63,998 nt of DNA from Promethearchaeota archaeon (lineage in GTDB: Archaea; Asgardarchaeota; Lokiarchaeia; Sigyniarchaeales; SOKP01): NCBI GenBank assembly GCA_016840165.1, contig JAEOSU010000031.1:1-63998 (forward strand). The letters run 5' to 3'. Of this stretch, positions 51,725-59,926 are shown piece after piece. Both the position numbers and the translations under genes were made by a program. The stretch's first letter is position 1, and the number at the start of each line of letters is the position of its first letter. The notes under the pieces were generated by a model. It did no database searches. It was not told the DNA's origin and saw only the letters and a list, made by a program, of their open reading frames with translations.

Positions 51725-53359
51725 ATGGCGAAAACAAGAACGATTATTTTAAATATTGTAATATTAATTATAGCACTTATTGTCATTTTCATCATCGTGG
51801 AGATCTTTACCAATTTTTTTGGTCATAGCGAGGAACTTATAAGTTTTTTTAATTCTTTTCTTACGGGAGGTATTTTATCGATGATTTATATGATTCTTGG
51901 TTTGGGACATATTCCACTTTCAATTATTTTCGGAATAATTCTTATCTGGAAAAGGTATAAAATAAAAGTCTACCCGTTTGTCTTAGTAATTTGGATTTAT
52001 CCATTACTTTCTTTTTTACCATTATTTATACCATTTTTCTTTAGGCCAGAGGATATCTCTAGTATGTTCTCATCTAGTTTTATTGTTAGTTCTGCTGCAA
52101 TTATTTTGCCTTCATTAAGTATTTCAATTCTCGCATTATTATGTAAAAGAACGGAAAAAGAACGACAGATGGTTGGCGGAAGAGAAATAAGTATAAGAGC
52201 CCCAACAGTCGCTAGAAGTTTTCCGTTAGAAAGGGAACTAATATTTATTAGTTATGCAACCGTCGATTCAAATTTTTTTCAGATTCCGAGACTTACGCGA
52301 ATATTGACTAGTTATCCAGAGATTGACAAAATTCTTTACTGGGAGTCAGATATGCACGATGATATATATAGATACATGGATTCTAATTTAAAGCGTAGTA
52401 AAATAGTACTTTTATTTTGCTCTAAAAATTCTCTTTATTCCGAATCAGTCAATATGGAATGGAGTTCAGCATTAAAATTGAATAAGCGGATTATCCCTAT
52501 ATTTACAAATCCAGAAAATATACCTGCATTATTAACAACCAAATTAGGAGTTCAATTTAATGTGAATGATCCTTTTTCTTCAATTGAGGATATTTACAAT
52601 ATGATATTAAAGAAATTAGAAGTTGAATCGGTTCGAGAATTTACAAGATATATTATACCAAAATGGATAAAAGCAGAGGATTTTTATCTTCAATTACCCT
52701 CTGAAGAGACGGTTGAAGAAACCTTAAGTTTCGAAAGTGATTTTCCTTCAAGTGAATTAGGAATTCAAATTGGTTCAATTCTGCAGAACAATAATTTTCA
52801 TGTTCCTGGACTGAAAAAAGCTCGAAAAGCAAAGAAAAAGAAAAAAAAGAAAGATACTTCTGAGTTAACTGAGGAACCTGATTTTACTACGTTTACTTCA
52901 TTCGCGGAGTTGCGAGATGATCCCGAGACGATTGCAATTTTAGTTAAAATTGAAAGAATAGCAGATGACAGCAGTAGTGTTTTACTTGATTTAAAAGGAA
53001 AAAGAGATTGGGTGTTAAAAGAAATCTTGAAAGATATTGATTTAAAACTAATTGAACTAAAAAGCAAAACAGAGCTTATTCGTAATTATTCTAATAAAGT
53101 CATATCTTTAATGAAAAACATACCTGATATCGAAAGATTCTTAAGAAAAAATCTGGGTTCGAGTATTAAAAAGGTTGAAGAGCTTATCACACAATATAAA
53201 AACAAAGAATTTGATGAGGAACAATTTATCATTAAAGCTACTCAATCCATAGGAAAGGATTTTATTATTGTGTTCCTTAGAAACATTTCTTTAATCCTTA
53301 AAGAAAAGAAAGAAATGTTAGAGACTAGCCCACCAAGTCAAACTCAAATTGCATTCTAA
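51725..53359 (+). CDS. Multi-TM - TIR - appendage-platform-like - helical module protein
   Basis: About 4 N-terminal TM helices; IFISYATVD...FCSKNS...NMEW TIR; C-terminal half aligns by eye with the C-terminus of 14916..18047. Confidence 0.8.
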   Translation: MAKTRTIILNIVILIIALIVIFIIVEIFTNFFGHSEELISFFNSFLTGGILSMIYMILGLGHIPLSIIFGIILIWKRYKIKVYPFVLVIWIYPLLSFLPLFIPFFFRPEDISSMFSSSFIVSSAAIILPSLSISILALLCKRTEKERQMVGGREISIRAPTVARSFPLERELIFISYATVDSNFFQIPRLTRILTSYPEIDKILYWESDMHDDIYRYMDSNLKRSKIVLLFCSKNSLYSESVNMEWSSALKLNKRIIPIFTNPENIPALLTTKLGVQFNVNDPFSSIEDIYNMILKKLEVESVREFTRYIIPKWIKAEDFYLQLPSEETVEETLSFESDFPSSELGIQIGSILQNNNFHVPGLKKARKAKKKKKKKDTSELTEEPDFTTFTSFAELRDDPETIAILVKIERIADDSSSVLLDLKGKRDWVLKEILKDIDLKLIELKSKTELIRNYSNKVISLMKNIPDIERFLRKNLGSSIKKVEELITQYKNKEFDEEQFIIKATQSIGKDFIIVFLRNISLILKEKKEMLETSPPSQTQIAF

Positions 53360-53479: not shown

Positions 53480-55204
53480 CTATAAAACTCCTGCGTCCTT
53501 GAGAATTTTTTTATGATCGAATGCTAAATCCATAGTTTTAATTTTTTCAATTGGTACTGCTTCAGCGGCTATTGCATCATCTCCTCCCATTATTTTTGAG
53601 AGATCTCGCACAAGTCGACATTTATAAGCATTTGAAACGATTCTTCCTCTTGGATCACGCCCTTTTTGATCATATACTCCAATTTTTCTAATTATTTCAA
53701 CCGCAAGATTAGTTTCTTCTCTTACTTCTCTTATAACCGCTTGTTTTGGATCTTCATTATATTTAATAAATCCTCCAGGTAGAGCGTATTTTCCCTTAAA
53801 TGGGGCATATTTTCTTTTAATTAAGATGACATTATTATTTTCTTGAATAACCGCATCAGCTGTATGTCCATATTTCAAGGCTCTTGTAGCTATTTTTCCA
53901 TATAAGAAATAACCTATTGTTATAAGCAAGAATGTACCTAAAAATATTGATATTATTGTATGAATTAAGGGTGATGGCTCTTCAGTCTCCCCTAATTTTA
54001 ACGCAATCCTAATTGCATTCATAAACTCTACAATAAATCCCGCTCCTAATAATATTTCTAAAAGATAAAGTGCTTTTTTTGTTTTTTTCTGATTTTCTTC
54101 ATTCCTCTTGAGATATAATTCTTGCATTGATTCGTAGAGCATTTGAAACTTATTATTAGTTCGTTCTATTATCGTTTCTAACCGGAATTGATCGATTAAA
54201 TGAGTTAAAACACTTGTATAATGTTGACGGGGATTCCAATCTAATTCGCTATAAATAAGACTCATCTTAGTGTTAATCATTCCTCGTAAAAATCTTAGAT
54301 TTTTCGTCTTCTCTTCGATTTTTTCTAAGCTCATAAACACATCAGAATAGCGTTTCATGAATAACACATCAAGAGAATTATTAATTGACATTAAAGCAAA
54401 TAGGACGGCTCTCATCTTGGGAGTGGGTTCTAAAATATGTTCGTTTATATATCCAAATTCTGGTTCAAAATTCTTTTCTATCATATATATAAAACCAGAA
54501 TTTCTTTTTATATAGTGTAATTCAGTTAAACGATTAGATAAGTTATTCTTAACTCTTCTTTGAAGAGTTTTTTCACTATAATCGCCCCATTGACCCGCAT
54601 ATATATTTGTCCAATATCCAAGAACATTCTTATATTTTTCTATATTTTCCGCACTCCACTGGATTTCAATAGGTAAAGTTTTCTTTGTTATTATGAAATC
54701 ATAAATTGGACTTTCGGTATCAAGAAGAAGAAACTGATTTTCTGGTTTTTTTTGATAATCCTTGAGAATATCAATTACGATAAAAGGAATTTGTTGAATT
54801 AAATCTGGTGTTATTTTTTCTTTATTATATGGCTCATTTTTGTAATACTCTACTTCTAATTTGAAGTATCCCAAAGTGTTATAGACTAAATCTTTATTAT
54901 CTTCAGTATAAGGATTATTTTCATCGATATAAGGAAAGTTTTGAAAAAAGGGTTCCCAATCACACTCTATTACTACAGATTTTGCCATATCTATTAAAAT
55001 ATTCTTCTTTTCCTCAGCATGTGGATATTTTTCTAAAAAAACAAATGATTTTCTTAAATCATTCTCAGATAAATTCTTCAGTTTATTTAACAATAATGCT
55101 TCTATTTCTTCAGCCTTTGTCTCTCCTATAAATTCATTGGTATTTATGAACGCACTTATATACCAATATTCTTTCTCGTAGATAAACCTTAAGTTATCTT
55201 CCAT
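53480..55204 (-). CDS. CorA-like two-TM protein fused to a C-terminal Nudix (ADP-ribose pyrophosphatase-like) domain
   Basis: Long stalk helix running into 2 TMs; Nudix box GFIKYNEDPKQAVIREVREETNL; RDPRG, GDDA and LAFDH. Nudix call is strong, CorA-like call moderate. Confidence 0.72.
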   Translation of the reverse strand: MEDNLRFIYEKEYWYISAFINTNEFIGETKAEEIEALLLNKLKNLSENDLRKSFVFLEKYPHAEEKKNILIDMAKSVVIECDWEPFFQNFPYIDENNPYTEDNKDLVYNTLGYFKLEVEYYKNEPYNKEKITPDLIQQIPFIVIDILKDYQKKPENQFLLLDTESPIYDFIITKKTLPIEIQWSAENIEKYKNVLGYWTNIYAGQWGDYSEKTLQRRVKNNLSNRLTELHYIKRNSGFIYMIEKNFEPEFGYINEHILEPTPKMRAVLFALMSINNSLDVLFMKRYSDVFMSLEKIEEKTKNLRFLRGMINTKMSLIYSELDWNPRQHYTSVLTHLIDQFRLETIIERTNNKFQMLYESMQELYLKRNEENQKKTKKALYLLEILLGAGFIVEFMNAIRIALKLGETEEPSPLIHTIISIFLGTFLLITIGYFLYGKIATRALKYGHTADAVIQENNNVILIKRKYAPFKGKYALPGGFIKYNEDPKQAVIREVREETNLAVEIIRKIGVYDQKGRDPRGRIVSNAYKCRLVRDLSKIMGGDDAIAAEAVPIEKIKTMDLAFDHKKILKDAGVL

Positions 55205-55541: not shown

Positions 55542-55988
55542 GTGAATAAGATTATGAGTGAAAGTAAAGTAAAATCATCTAGTAGTGTATTAAACCTATT
55601 ATTAATAATTCTGGGGTTACTGTTTATTTTTATGGCAATATTAAACTTCCTCTTATTAGCAGGTATTTATGTACCAGATTTTCTATCAGGTATTAGTTCA
55701 GAAGAATTGTCAATTTTTGGCAGTCAAGGATTTATTTCCATAGCGTTAGGATTCTGGAGCATTGTAGCTGGTGTTGGAATGTTTAGAGAAGCAGAGTGGG
55801 CAATGGGGCAAGCACTTGTTATTCTTAGTATAATGGTAATTTCTGGTATCTCCCCGATATTTACTTGGATCACAAGTCCTTGGTTGTTTGACATACAATA
55901 TTGGCCGAATTATATTACCTTAATAGCTTTCGTTGGGGGTATCATTGGATTTATCTGGCTGCTAGTTACACGTAAAAGGTATGACTAA
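55542..55988 (+). CDS. Four-TM membrane protein
   Basis: Four hydrophobic helices, basic C-terminus. Confidence 0.72.
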   Translation: MNKIMSESKVKSSSSVLNLLLIILGLLFIFMAILNFLLLAGIYVPDFLSGISSEELSIFGSQGFISIALGFWSIVAGVGMFREAEWAMGQALVILSIMVISGISPIFTWITSPWLFDIQYWPNYITLIAFVGGIIGFIWLLVTRKRYD

Positions 55989-56260: not shown

Positions 56261-59200
56261 TTGGAAATGGAATTACCTGATAAGAAATTAAAAGAAAGTT
56301 TTGAATATCCTCAGCATTTATACCCAAAAAGAAAAGGACTTGCAAAAGCTTTTCACATGACTCAAAGTTTTGGCCATAGTAGTGATGTAACCTCAGTTAT
56401 TATCTCTCACAAAAGAGATTATATTATTAGTGGTTCAAAAGATAAGACTTTAAAAGTTTGGGAATTTGCAACAGGGAATTTATTAAAAACCATAGAGGCA
56501 CATAATGAGCCTATCTTATCTGTAGCAATCGCTGTAGATGATTCTTATATTTTTACATGCTCTTCAGATCACTTAATAAAAGTATGGGGATTAAGAGCAG
56601 GACATCTTATTAACGAATTTAAAGATCATACTGATTCGGTTACTTCATTAAAAGTAACTTATGATGGAAAATATCTTATTAGCGGCTCTAAAGATAAATA
56701 TGCGATAATCTGGGATATATTAAATGCAAAACCTATCCATAAATACCAACATAAGAGTGGGATAACCTCAATTGATGTGACTAAGGATGGTAACTTATTA
56801 CTCTGTGGAGATGAGGATGGAGTCATCACAATATGGGATTTGAATAAAAATAAATTTGTTCGGACTATAAAAGGACATTCAGGAGCAATAACATCATTAT
56901 CGATTTCCGCTGATTTAGAATATTTTAGCAGTGGATCTGATGATAACACAGTGAGAGTTTGGGACCTTTCAAAAGGAAAACCCCTCCAGATTTACAAAGA
57001 TCATTCTAATGCGGTACGCTGTGTTGCGATATCACCAAAAGGAAACTTATTAGTTAGTGGGTCTGATGATAAAACCATTAAACTACGCAATATAGAAACT
57101 GGTGTTACTCTTAGGACATTAAGGGGATATACTAAAGAAATATTATCTATTGCTTTTTCCCCCGAGGGTGATTATATTGTAACAGGCTCCACAGACAATA
57201 ATATTATGGTTTGGGAAATAATGGAAGGAAAATTAGAAAATACTATTAATGCTCACTCGGATGGCATAAATGTGGTATCTATTTCTCCTGAAGGAAATTA
57301 TGTTGCTTCTGGTTCTAATGATAAAACTGTGAAATTATGGGATATCACAAACCAGAAACTTGTAAGAACGTTTATCGGACATAAAAAACCAATTAGTTCA
57401 ATCGCTTTTTCCCAAAATCAGAAGTTTCTTATTAGTAGTTCTTTAGATAAGGATGCAATTATTTGGGACATAAGTGGTTCAAGGGCACTAACTTCAATAA
57501 ATAAGATTGGAACAAACGTAAACTCTTTAGTGTTTACCCCTACAACCAATCAGATAATGATGGGTTTAAGTAATAATTATTTAAAAATGTGGGATATGAA
57601 TTCAAGGGAATTTATATGGGAATCAAAAGAACATAAAGGTTCTATAACGGATATAAAATTCACTCCAAATGGAAAATATTTCGTTACTTCATCAGAAGAT
57701 AAACATTTGAAGATTTGGGATTTTGTATCTAGAGAAGTAATTAAAGATCTTAGTGGTCATAAAGGAAAAATATTGTCTCTTGATATTGCACCAAATGGTG
57801 CTAAAATCTCCAGCGGCGCTGATGATAATACAGTAAAAATCTGGGACTTTTATACTGGAGATTTAATTAAGAGTCTTGAGAACCATACTAATGAGGTTTC
57901 AAGTATTTCATATTCACCGATAGGGAATTGTTTCATAAGTGGGTCAGGAGATGAAACAATTAAAGTATGGGATAACTCAAAATATGAATTAATTCAGTCA
58001 TTTGAAGGCCATCAGAAACCAGTATCCTCAATTGATATTACTAATGATGGAAAATATGCAATTAGTGGCTCTCAGGATGGAACGTTGAAATTTTGGTCTC
58101 TTACGTTCGGTGGAATATTTAAAAATATTAAAGGTCATACTGAAAATGTTAATTCGGTTGCCGTTTCATCAGACAAACAATATGCCGTCAGTGGATTATC
58201 GAATAAATCATTAATTGTATGGAATCTTTCTAATGGAAATTTAATAAAAACTCTAAAAGGTCATAATGATATAATTAGTTCGGTCGCATTTTTGTCAGGA
58301 GGAAAAAATGTGGTAAGTGCTTCCTATGATAATACCTTAAAAATTTGGGACATTAAAACTGGTGAGGTATTGTGGAATTTGAATGGCCATAACGGACCCG
58401 TGACTTCTGTAGCAGCTTCTTCTGACGGTAAATTTGTAGTAAGTGGCTCAAAAGATAAAACTATTATAATATGGGAGCCTTCTACTGGCAAACTACTAAA
58501 GAGACTAAAAGATCACGCTAGTGGTGTCACATCAGTAGATATTTCTCCTAATGGAGAATTAATCGCAAGTGGATCTGAAGATAATTCAATAAATATATGG
58601 AATATGAAAAAAGGAAAACTAATTCGCACTTTAAAAGGGCATAATGGAGTAGTAACTTCAGTTGCATTTTCACCGGATAGTGAATATCTTGCCAGTGGTT
58701 CAAAAGATCAATCTGTGAAATTATGGAAACTTAATACTGGCGAACTTGATTACTCTTTTGAAAGATTAAATAGTCCTGTGTTGACAGTAACTTTTTCATC
58801 GGATGGTTCCTTTATAGCTTGTGGTACAGAAGATAATTTTGTGAGGGTTTGGGATTTTCATGAGAAATACCAAAGTTCATACTATTACTTGTCAAAAGTA
58901 AATTCAGCAACATTTATTCCAAATACAAATCAAATTATTGCAGGTTATGATTCAGGAGATGTGTTAATATGGGACTTATTAATGGAAGAACAAGAACAAC
59001 TTTTACAAGAACTTCGCGCTAAATTATCGGATATTGAAGAAATGATTAATAATAATAATTATTCAGAGGCTATTGAAAGTTTAAATTATATTTTAGAGAC
59101 TGCAAATGTGTTTAACTTTGAGGAAATAAGATCAATTGCTTTTGAAAAACTAAAAAACTTAAGAGATCCAGAAGAAACACAAAGTAATATTAGAAAAATA

Positions 59201-59926
59201 TTGGAATTCGAATATAAAAATCAGAGAGATATTACTAAAGCTGAGATGGTAAATCAACTTAATATTGAAATTTCAGAGACGGATTATTATACAAGTTTGC
59301 TATCGACTACCATCAATTATGATCCCTCCGAAATACCCCAATTAGAAAGCTTAGGAACAAAAATCCTAAAAAAATTCATCAGTCCCACTTCCTACGATTT
59401 AATTATTAAATTGGAGTATGATTATAAGCGAGCTTTTAAAATTGCTAAATTTCTCTTAGATAGAGGATTTATTCAACATTTTCGAAATTATCCCATTGTT
59501 GGAGAACAAATTGAGGCAGGGAAAAAGATAGAGGATTTAATTATATTTATCAGTTATGCTACGGTTGACGCAGATTTATATAAAGTAGAAGAATTAGCGT
59601 CGAGATTAGAGTCCTATAAGGAAATTAAAAAAGTTTTATACTGGCAAGAACACATGACAGATAATATCATCAAATATATGAGTGATAATTTAGCAAGATG
59701 CAGCACAATGATTTTACTTTGCTCAGAAAATGCTCTTAATTCGAGTCCTGTAGATAAAGAGTGGACTGCTGCAGATGCAATAGGTAAACCAATAATTCCT
59801 GTATTTTTAAAACAAGAACATATACCTCCACTTCTTAAATCAAGATTAGGACTTCAATATGATCTTGTAGATTTTGAGAAAAATATAATGCAGCTTCACA
59901 GTTTAATTTTAAAAAAATGTCAATAA
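56261..59926 (+). CDS. 21-WD40-repeat - helical hairpin - winged-helix-like - TIR protein
   Basis: 21 GH...WD-type repeats counted; C-terminal IFISYATVD...LCSENA...DKEW TIR. Confidence 0.92.
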   Translation: MEMELPDKKLKESFEYPQHLYPKRKGLAKAFHMTQSFGHSSDVTSVIISHKRDYIISGSKDKTLKVWEFATGNLLKTIEAHNEPILSVAIAVDDSYIFTCSSDHLIKVWGLRAGHLINEFKDHTDSVTSLKVTYDGKYLISGSKDKYAIIWDILNAKPIHKYQHKSGITSIDVTKDGNLLLCGDEDGVITIWDLNKNKFVRTIKGHSGAITSLSISADLEYFSSGSDDNTVRVWDLSKGKPLQIYKDHSNAVRCVAISPKGNLLVSGSDDKTIKLRNIETGVTLRTLRGYTKEILSIAFSPEGDYIVTGSTDNNIMVWEIMEGKLENTINAHSDGINVVSISPEGNYVASGSNDKTVKLWDITNQKLVRTFIGHKKPISSIAFSQNQKFLISSSLDKDAIIWDISGSRALTSINKIGTNVNSLVFTPTTNQIMMGLSNNYLKMWDMNSREFIWESKEHKGSITDIKFTPNGKYFVTSSEDKHLKIWDFVSREVIKDLSGHKGKILSLDIAPNGAKISSGADDNTVKIWDFYTGDLIKSLENHTNEVSSISYSPIGNCFISGSGDETIKVWDNSKYELIQSFEGHQKPVSSIDITNDGKYAISGSQDGTLKFWSLTFGGIFKNIKGHTENVNSVAVSSDKQYAVSGLSNKSLIVWNLSNGNLIKTLKGHNDIISSVAFLSGGKNVVSASYDNTLKIWDIKTGEVLWNLNGHNGPVTSVAASSDGKFVVSGSKDKTIIIWEPSTGKLLKRLKDHASGVTSVDISPNGELIASGSEDNSINIWNMKKGKLIRTLKGHNGVVTSVAFSPDSEYLASGSKDQSVKLWKLNTGELDYSFERLNSPVLTVTFSSDGSFIACGTEDNFVRVWDFHEKYQSSYYYLSKVNSATFIPNTNQIIAGYDSGDVLIWDLLMEEQEQLLQELRAKLSDIEEMINNNNYSEAIESLNYILETANVFNFEEIRSIAFEKLKNLRDPEETQSNIRKILEFEYKNQRDITKAEMVNQLNIEISETDYYTSLLSTTINYDPSEIPQLESLGTKILKKFISPTSYDLIIKLEYDYKRAFKIAKFLLDRGFIQHFRNYPIVGEQIEAGKKIEDLIIFISYATVDADLYKVEELASRLESYKEIKKVLYWQEHMTDNIIKYMSDNLARCSTMILLCSENALNSSPVDKEWTAADAIGKPIIPVFLKQEHIPPLLKSRLGLQYDLVDFEKNIMQLHSLILKKCQ

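Follow-up and report, generated by a model that had tools for sequence, protein, structure and literature searches.

The window analysed here, 63,998 nucleotides (positions 1 to 63,998) of contig JAEOSU010000031.1 from a Promethearchaeota archaeon (assembly GCA_016840165.1; G+C content of about 31%), carries on its reverse strand, at positions 53480–55204, a gene for a 574-residue protein in which a CorA-like N-terminal domain, a stalk helix, two transmembrane (TM) helices and a Nudix domain are fused. About 540 proteins, annotated as products of Promethearchaeota or Lokiarchaeota metagenome-assembled genomes, matched the fused protein, and the best 120 of them were 59–92% identical to it. Nearly all full-length homologues were 570–578 residues long and shared the start MEENLRF, so the gene call is sound, and the reading frame reported in a preliminary description of this DNA, made from its letters only, is a real gene. 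Two fused paralogues were distinguished, type A, to which this gene belongs (63–100% identity), and type B (about 41–53%). The usual position of the type-A gene beside genes for TIR-domain proteins suggests a signalling or defence pathway at the membrane that uses NAD-derived signals and has not been described before.

The convergent neighbour of the fused gene (51725–53359, forward strand) encodes a 544-residue protein with four TM segments and a TIR domain (approximately 52241–52561). On the other side lies a divergent gene for a 148-residue protein with four TM segments (55542–55988, forward strand), and beyond it, upstream of the fused gene and on the opposite strand, a gene for a 1221-residue WD40 protein of three propellers (56261–59926, forward strand) with a C-terminal TIR domain (59543–59884). 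Only eight TIR_2 matches were obtained in the 3.6-Mb genome, a background density of about one per 450 kb, and two of them flank the fused gene at 127 bp and 1057 bp. In most loci with a WD40-TIR gene, the gene for the 148-residue four-TM protein immediately preceded it; this small protein may hold the soluble WD40-TIR protein at the membrane. Besides TIR, the neighbouring open reading frames (ORFs) code for thioesterase, OsmC, CCG/Fe-S and GFO oxidoreductase proteins; no cas genes were found among them, and hence nothing of the type III cas10 locus in which CRISPR-associated CorA is found. In the PADLOC scan the TM-TIR neighbour matched ThsB only marginally (E 0.033), and no ThsA model matched either the fused protein or any of the three neighbours that were scanned, so that no Thoeris pair of a ThsB TIR protein and a ThsA effector of SIR2-SLOG or Macro-TM type was found. 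A third TIR protein of 443 residues, with no TM segment, is encoded in the window at 11352–12680 (forward strand), 41 kb from the fused gene. In one lineage the gene for NadA (quinolinate synthase, NAD biosynthesis) comes straight after the block of fused gene, 148-residue gene and WD40-TIR gene (L002:12324-13268; L003:9621-10565).

A total of 33 type-A loci were collected and scanned with a TIR hidden Markov model built from sequences gathered in this analysis; eight of the 33 were too short for TIR adjacency to be judged. At 20 of the 25 informative loci a TIR gene was found within 72–954 bp of the type-A gene, and TIR genes stand beside this gene far more often than chance allows. In the type-B loci used as a control, a TIR gene within 8 kb was found at none of eleven. 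The TIR partners had at least eight architectures and were encoded on either side of the fused gene and in both orientations. The WD40-TIR orthologue adjoined the type-A gene in many genomes and alone had four arrangements: co-directional and upstream, co-directional and downstream with the 148-residue gene intervening, divergent, and convergent. The other partners comprised a 1074-residue LVIVD/TSP3-repeat protein, a 1431-residue beta-helix/NosD protein, proteins of 682, 543 and 349 residues, a 138-residue TIR-only protein and the four-TM TIR protein. In one genome (G113) the sole TIR found adjoins the fused gene. A homologue of only 30% identity (619 residues, genome G165, L057:2-5460), from another genome family, was the first gene of a same-direction string continued by a 249-residue TIR gene and a SIR2-TPR gene, with a 320-residue zinc-ribbon-TIR gene divergently upstream, so that three NAD-consuming domains surround one Nudix membrane protein at this locus.

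TIR-domain proteins cleave NAD+ to give ADP-ribose (ADPR)-type nucleotides. A Ser-x5-Glu motif, containing the catalytic Glu, was invariant in the TIR domains collected here and lined up with the catalytic SxWCxxEL of TIR NADases of solved structure, among them Cat1 and a TIR-TPR protein. The neighbouring TIR domains lay close to the membrane, some in TM-TIR proteins. Several of the partners were built in the manner of Toll-like receptors, with an N-terminal hydrophobic segment, a large region of ectodomain type (LVIVD/TSP3 or beta-helix/NosD), one TM segment and the TIR domain 10–35 residues further on (L087:11857-15078, L068:5531-9823, L078:11884-13929 and L064:6062-7690, all on the reverse strand).

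The hydropathy profile of the fused protein showed exactly two TM segments, at residues 384–402 and 416–434. The sequence KKTKK precedes the first, an acidic GETEEPSP stretch lies between the two, and Lys and Arg residues follow the second; this distribution of charges places both the N-terminal and the Nudix domain in the cytoplasm, on the same side of the membrane, as had been proposed. AlphaFold2 with a diverse alignment of 45 sequences gave a confident model of residues 1–445 (mean predicted local distance difference test score, pLDDT, 89.3; predicted template modelling score 0.81), in which an α/β domain is followed by a helical bundle, a 60-residue helix (residues 342–401) running into TM1, a 10-residue loop and TM2 (helix 412–444). 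The stretch quoted in the preliminary description as a long helix after the soluble domain corresponds to residues 342–377 and falls within this modelled helix. The full-length model, calculated with a shallow alignment, was too poor (pLDDT 61.8) to show how the Nudix domain sits with respect to the stalk. On these data, together with fold matches to CorA soluble domains and the conservation pattern, the cytoplasmic N-terminal domain was delimited as residues 1–341 (54182–55204), the stalk continuing as TM1 as residues 342–402 (53999–54181; motif L[FL]GAGF...[ED]F) and TM2, after a short acidic external loop, as residues 412–436 (53897–53971). The N-terminal domain was the best-conserved part of the protein and the TM helices the least conserved; between W183 and Y252 the former contains a cluster of invariant or near-invariant polar residues that includes W183, R225, E228 and H230.

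The earlier view of this part as a CorA-like membrane domain stood as regards architecture; sequence comparison did not establish homology to CorA. In a Foldseek search of the PDB, CorA chains ranked top (E 7e-3, probability 0.8–0.98). Unrelated three-helix bundles scored equally high in fold searches but spanned residues 250–370 only, and CorA/Mrs2/ZntB/CmaX was the sole family whose matches extended over all three of α/β domain, stalk and TM hairpin. The third match in a language-model atlas search was a cluster automatically named 'CorA-like protein' (score 0.91), and a stand-alone paralogue is named 'CorA-like Mg2+ transporter' in UniRef. Of the features of the CorA/MIT superfamily (TC 1.A.35), the α/β plus helical-bundle domain and the order stalk, TM1, loop and TM2 with cytoplasmic termini were found; a sequence-profile match was absent, and TM1 had no GMN or GxN at its external end. 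No Pfam, NCBIfam or PADLOC model matched residues 1–445; Pfam CorA (PF01544) matched none of the 45 family members at E values up to 1, and the profile of the N-terminal domain gave nothing meaningful against PDB sequences. When aligned with hhalign to 27 Asgard CorA sequences, the TM hairpin alone was matched, weakly (probability 37%, P 3.6e-4), in register with CorA residues 286–346. GMN was absent from the C-terminal part of every family member of at least 380 residues. Judging by the model, residues 1–445 are CorA-like in architecture; a place in the CorA family proper is not established. Among clusters of the ESM Atlas, bacterial proteins of similar predicted fold were observed (template modelling scores of 0.61–0.68), including MJ0711_N (PF27233) proteins, and in one Bacillota cluster of this kind (622 residues) 31% of the members had an acetyltransferase domain; outside the archaea the module of N-terminal domain and two TM helices may thus carry other C-terminal enzymes.

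The FMN tripeptide of the fused protein had been placed roughly where CorA has GMN in the preliminary description, which also proposed an altered ion selectivity. FMN lies inside TM1, not at the loop, and varies across the family (EF[MVAF][ND], with EFVN, EFAN and DFFD among the versions observed); for these reasons, and since GMN was found in no member, FMN is not the counterpart of GMN, and its reading as an altered selectivity filter was ruled out.

The Nudix domain (residues 446–574; 53483–53869) begins about 10 residues past TM2. Pfam NUDIX matched residues 448–570 with an E value of 4e-17 and was the sole Pfam domain detected in the protein. The Nudix box (residues 478–500; 53705–53773) reads G478-x5-E484-x7-R492-E-V-R-E-E-T-N-L, with the catalytic residues R492, E493, E496 and E497 intact; RDPRG and LAFDH are both present. 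The description of a complete box accompanied by these two motifs was thus borne out, with a single change, G to N, at the penultimate position. Among 123 fused homologues the box was intact in 115, and in 114 of these RDPR stood 18 residues past it. The best NCBIfam models were NadM-Nudix (Nudix half, 1.5e-19) and the ADPR-responsive repressor NtrR (9e-14), both scoring below the equivalog cut-offs, so that the assignment holds at group level only. The closest PDB sequences included 3i9x, 2yyh, 2qjo (NadM-Nudix) and 3gz8/3gz5; NUDT9 was not among the PDB sequence matches of this domain. With the NadM-Nudix and NrtR group as its nearest models and structures and with RDPR conserved, the domain is assigned to the ADPR type, in agreement with the earlier description. 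According to the accounts available for the NadM/NrtR group, it holds ADPR pyrophosphatases alongside non-catalytic ADPR sensors (PMC2330246, PMC9503650).

Stand-alone Nudix proteins of 137–170 residues, 45–53% identical to residues 448–574, were found across most families of the phylum and are the likely donor of the fused domain. A few stand-alone versions (G171:C69, G008:C19) also aligned to TM2, from residue 414–419 onwards, and may carry a TM helix. In the distant fused homologues P0122, P0128, P0134 and, in part, P0133, the catalytic Arg and Glu residues of the box were lost and the domain was kept; P0122 retained GRDPRG and LAFDH despite its degenerate box. To go by their sequences, these homologues may be pure sensor versions; that the domain was kept after its box had degenerated is a hint that it may bind a ligand for purposes other than catalysis.

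These properties bear on the main rival to a signalling role, namely a tethered hydrolase without channel activity. The protein would then be a membrane-bound pyrophosphatase for ADPR or a derivative, clearing the products of membrane TIR proteins and so ending the signal or serving as a safety enzyme, with the CorA-like part as an oligomeric scaffold, anchor or regulator. It would agree with the catalytic box being intact in nearly all members, with the start of the Nudix domain so close to TM2, near where membrane TIR domains would sit, with the wide occurrence of the stand-alone Nudix, which makes the enzyme function older than the fusion, and with the low conservation of the TM helices. 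A module of 445 residues that is better conserved than the enzyme domain would, however, be a costly anchor, the same module also exists alone without Nudix, and the retention of a catalytically degenerate Nudix domain in some lineages is left unexplained by pure hydrolysis. We regard this alternative as possible, if rather unlikely. A further use of the two activities would lie in RNA turnover, the TIR protein stripping nicotinamide from NAD-RNA and the Nudix domain then decapping the resulting ADPR-RNA at the membrane. As far as the sources at hand describe it, the nicotinamide of NAD-capped RNA can be cleaved off by TIR proteins (PMC10937652) and decapping of ADPR-RNA occurs in Archaea (PMC10663502). 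The CorA-like membrane module would have no explanation in such a process, RNA-binding domains are absent from the protein, and the nearest relatives of the Nudix domain are of the NadM/NrtR type, which acts on free ADPR; an RNA-directed function is therefore highly improbable.

Full-length matches were limited to the GTDB family of the window and one other family of the same order, and the family is limited to Lokiarchaeia-type Asgard archaea. An exhaustive HMMER search yielded 88 representative clusters, among them Nudix-fused forms of 555–615 residues and stand-alone forms of about 380–480 residues that end past TM2 and had no Pfam domain above the curated cut-off. The existence of these forms without Nudix shows the module of N-terminal domain and two TM helices to be autonomous. 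Longer fused forms, for example with a TIR domain, were searched for and none was found, which is weak evidence. In the genome of the window, the type-B protein (C50:2730-4394; L045:2718-4400, forward strand) was about 50% identical to type A and had an intact Nudix box; its gene is accompanied by histidine-biosynthesis genes, a peptidase M14 gene and a gene for an ICMT-like methyltransferase, with no TIR gene nearby. In Promethearchaeum syntrophicum (CP042905.2, L058:6001-10173) the gene of a stand-alone paralogue, DSAG12_02209, is followed after 16 bp by a 940-residue SIR2_2 gene; ParE toxin genes lie near, and this island is missing from the syntenic locus L062. SIR2 was considered as a conserved partner of the stand-alone paralogue and rejected, being absent at three other loci of the same or different context.

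The setting of these relatives gives some ground for a housekeeping role, in which a cation or solute transporter of the CorA superfamily would be tuned by NAD/ADPR status through the Nudix domain and the TIR genes would reflect lineage synteny or an insertion hotspot. Such a role would fit the apparently vertical inheritance at 60–92% identity, the place of type B beside histidine-biosynthesis genes, the conserved housekeeping synteny of the stand-alone relatives and the type-A loci that have no TIR neighbour. Against it, a canonical CorA with GMN is already encoded elsewhere in the genome, and TIR adjacency recurs with different TIR proteins and in different orientations, and again at 30% identity, on a background density as low as that given above. 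A housekeeping transporter is thus quite improbable.

The reading that we prefer, with a probability of about 45%, is that the gene product is a membrane receiver or effector of a TIR-based pathway employing an NAD+-derived nucleotide. Once activated, the neighbouring TIR proteins, many of which look like membrane receptors or are paired with a small membrane protein, would turn NAD+ into ADPR, or into a nucleotide containing it, on the cytoplasmic side of the membrane. The fused protein would bind this nucleotide in its Nudix pocket or in the polar cluster of its N-terminal domain, and binding would shift the state of the TM hairpin in a putative CorA-like oligomer, with altered membrane permeability or ion flux as the outcome. 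The intact Nudix box would then hydrolyse the nucleotide and reset the system. Two versions may be envisaged. In one the Nudix domain would be the sensor, following the logic of TRPM2, and the degenerate-box relatives speak for this; in the other the polar cluster would be the sensor and the Nudix domain the off-switch, as proposed for CRISPR CorA and NrN.

Several observations weigh against a receiver or effector role of this kind. To the missing sequence match with CorA and the missing GMN are added the five type-A loci with full flanks and no TIR neighbour, a genome (G156) that has a type-A gene and in which no TIR of this clade was found with the query used, and the housekeeping surroundings of type B and of the stand-alone relatives. 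The high conservation and apparently vertical inheritance of the type-A protein are unusual for a suicide effector; they favour a regulated signalling role over a fast-evolving suicide effector. Some genomes also have TIR proteins of this clade and no type-A gene, and the TIR linkage is not obligate. Since the loci share ancestry, the counts moreover overstate their independence, and linkage is argued more strongly by how varied the partners and their orientations are.

Immunity in bacteria, plants and animals relies centrally on ADPR nucleotides produced by TIR proteins. To our knowledge, few effector types for them are known, and none in Asgard archaea. Further, undescribed TIR pathways may exist in these archaea; the published evidence that leaves room for them comes from a Kariarchaeaceae host, a lineage other than that of this genome. 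A CorA-like/Nudix fusion was described in none of the papers found by the literature searches. Should the effector role be correct, the family would add a new class of effector, a CorA-like scaffold with Nudix, would join CRISPR CorA-NrN as a second CorA-like effector fused to an enzyme destroying its presumed ligand, and, in the archaea most closely related to eukaryotes, would link receptor-like TIR proteins to an output at the membrane.

By analogy, the proposed logic has known counterparts in CRISPR CorA-NrN, type II Thoeris and TRPM2, and each half of the protein has relatives with which it may be compared. Canonical CorA, Mrs2 and ZntB share with it the cytoplasmic α/β and helical domain, the stalk into TM1, the short loop and TM2, and the termini inside, whereas the fused protein has neither GMN nor a Pfam CorA match, about 100 additional N-terminal residues and a C-terminal enzyme. 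On the Nudix side the nearest relatives in sequence are NadM-Nudix and NrtR, soluble proteins in which an adenylyltransferase or a helix-turn-helix domain takes the place of the membrane module found here.

The effector of type II Thoeris has a transmembrane part. In that system, according to the accounts available, His-ADPR is the product of the TIR protein ThsB and is recognised by an effector with a Macro domain (10.1101/2024.01.03.573942, PMC11204291). As far as those accounts go, the likeness lies in a TIR signal generator combined with an effector that joins an ADPR-binding domain to TM helices, and the difference in the sensor, which is a Macro domain there and comes without a CorA-like module or a built-in hydrolase. 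Another parallel is the type III CRISPR CorA effector, which occurs with an NrN/DEDD phosphodiesterase in Bacteroides fragilis and as an nrn-corA fusion in Aliarcobacter butzleri; compared by description, its N-terminal domain has a fold of its own (PMC10600005). Like the fused protein, this effector is a divergent CorA-like membrane protein that lacks the classic Mg2+ role; in each case a nucleotide messenger bound at the cytoplasmic part would, by analogy, open the protein, which has an enzyme that degrades this messenger as an obligate and sometimes fused partner. There, however, SAM-AMP is made by Cas10 and the degrading enzyme is DHH/DEDD, whereas here the neighbours are TIR proteins and the enzyme is Nudix.

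TRPM2 is an ADPR-gated tetrameric TRP channel with six TM segments and a C-terminal NUDT9-homology domain, the Nudix part of which is active in some species ('chanzyme'). The preliminary description had ascribed a TRPM2-like ADPR logic to the fused protein. The part that holds is the presence of a cytoplasmic ADPR-type Nudix domain on a membrane protein; the six-TM TRP core and NUDT9 have no equivalent in it, since a two-TM CorA-like scaffold and a Nudix domain of NadM/NrtR type take their place, and the resemblance is one of analogy only. In its most far-reaching form, which we consider unlikely and put forward as a conjecture, receptor-like TIR proteins of Lokiarchaeia-type Asgard archaea would turn an external cue into an ADPR-type nucleotide that gates a self-hydrolysing channel-enzyme on a CorA scaffold. 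If true, this would be a prokaryotic functional counterpart, assembled from unrelated parts, of the animal axis that leads from SARM1/CD38 through ADPR to TRPM2.

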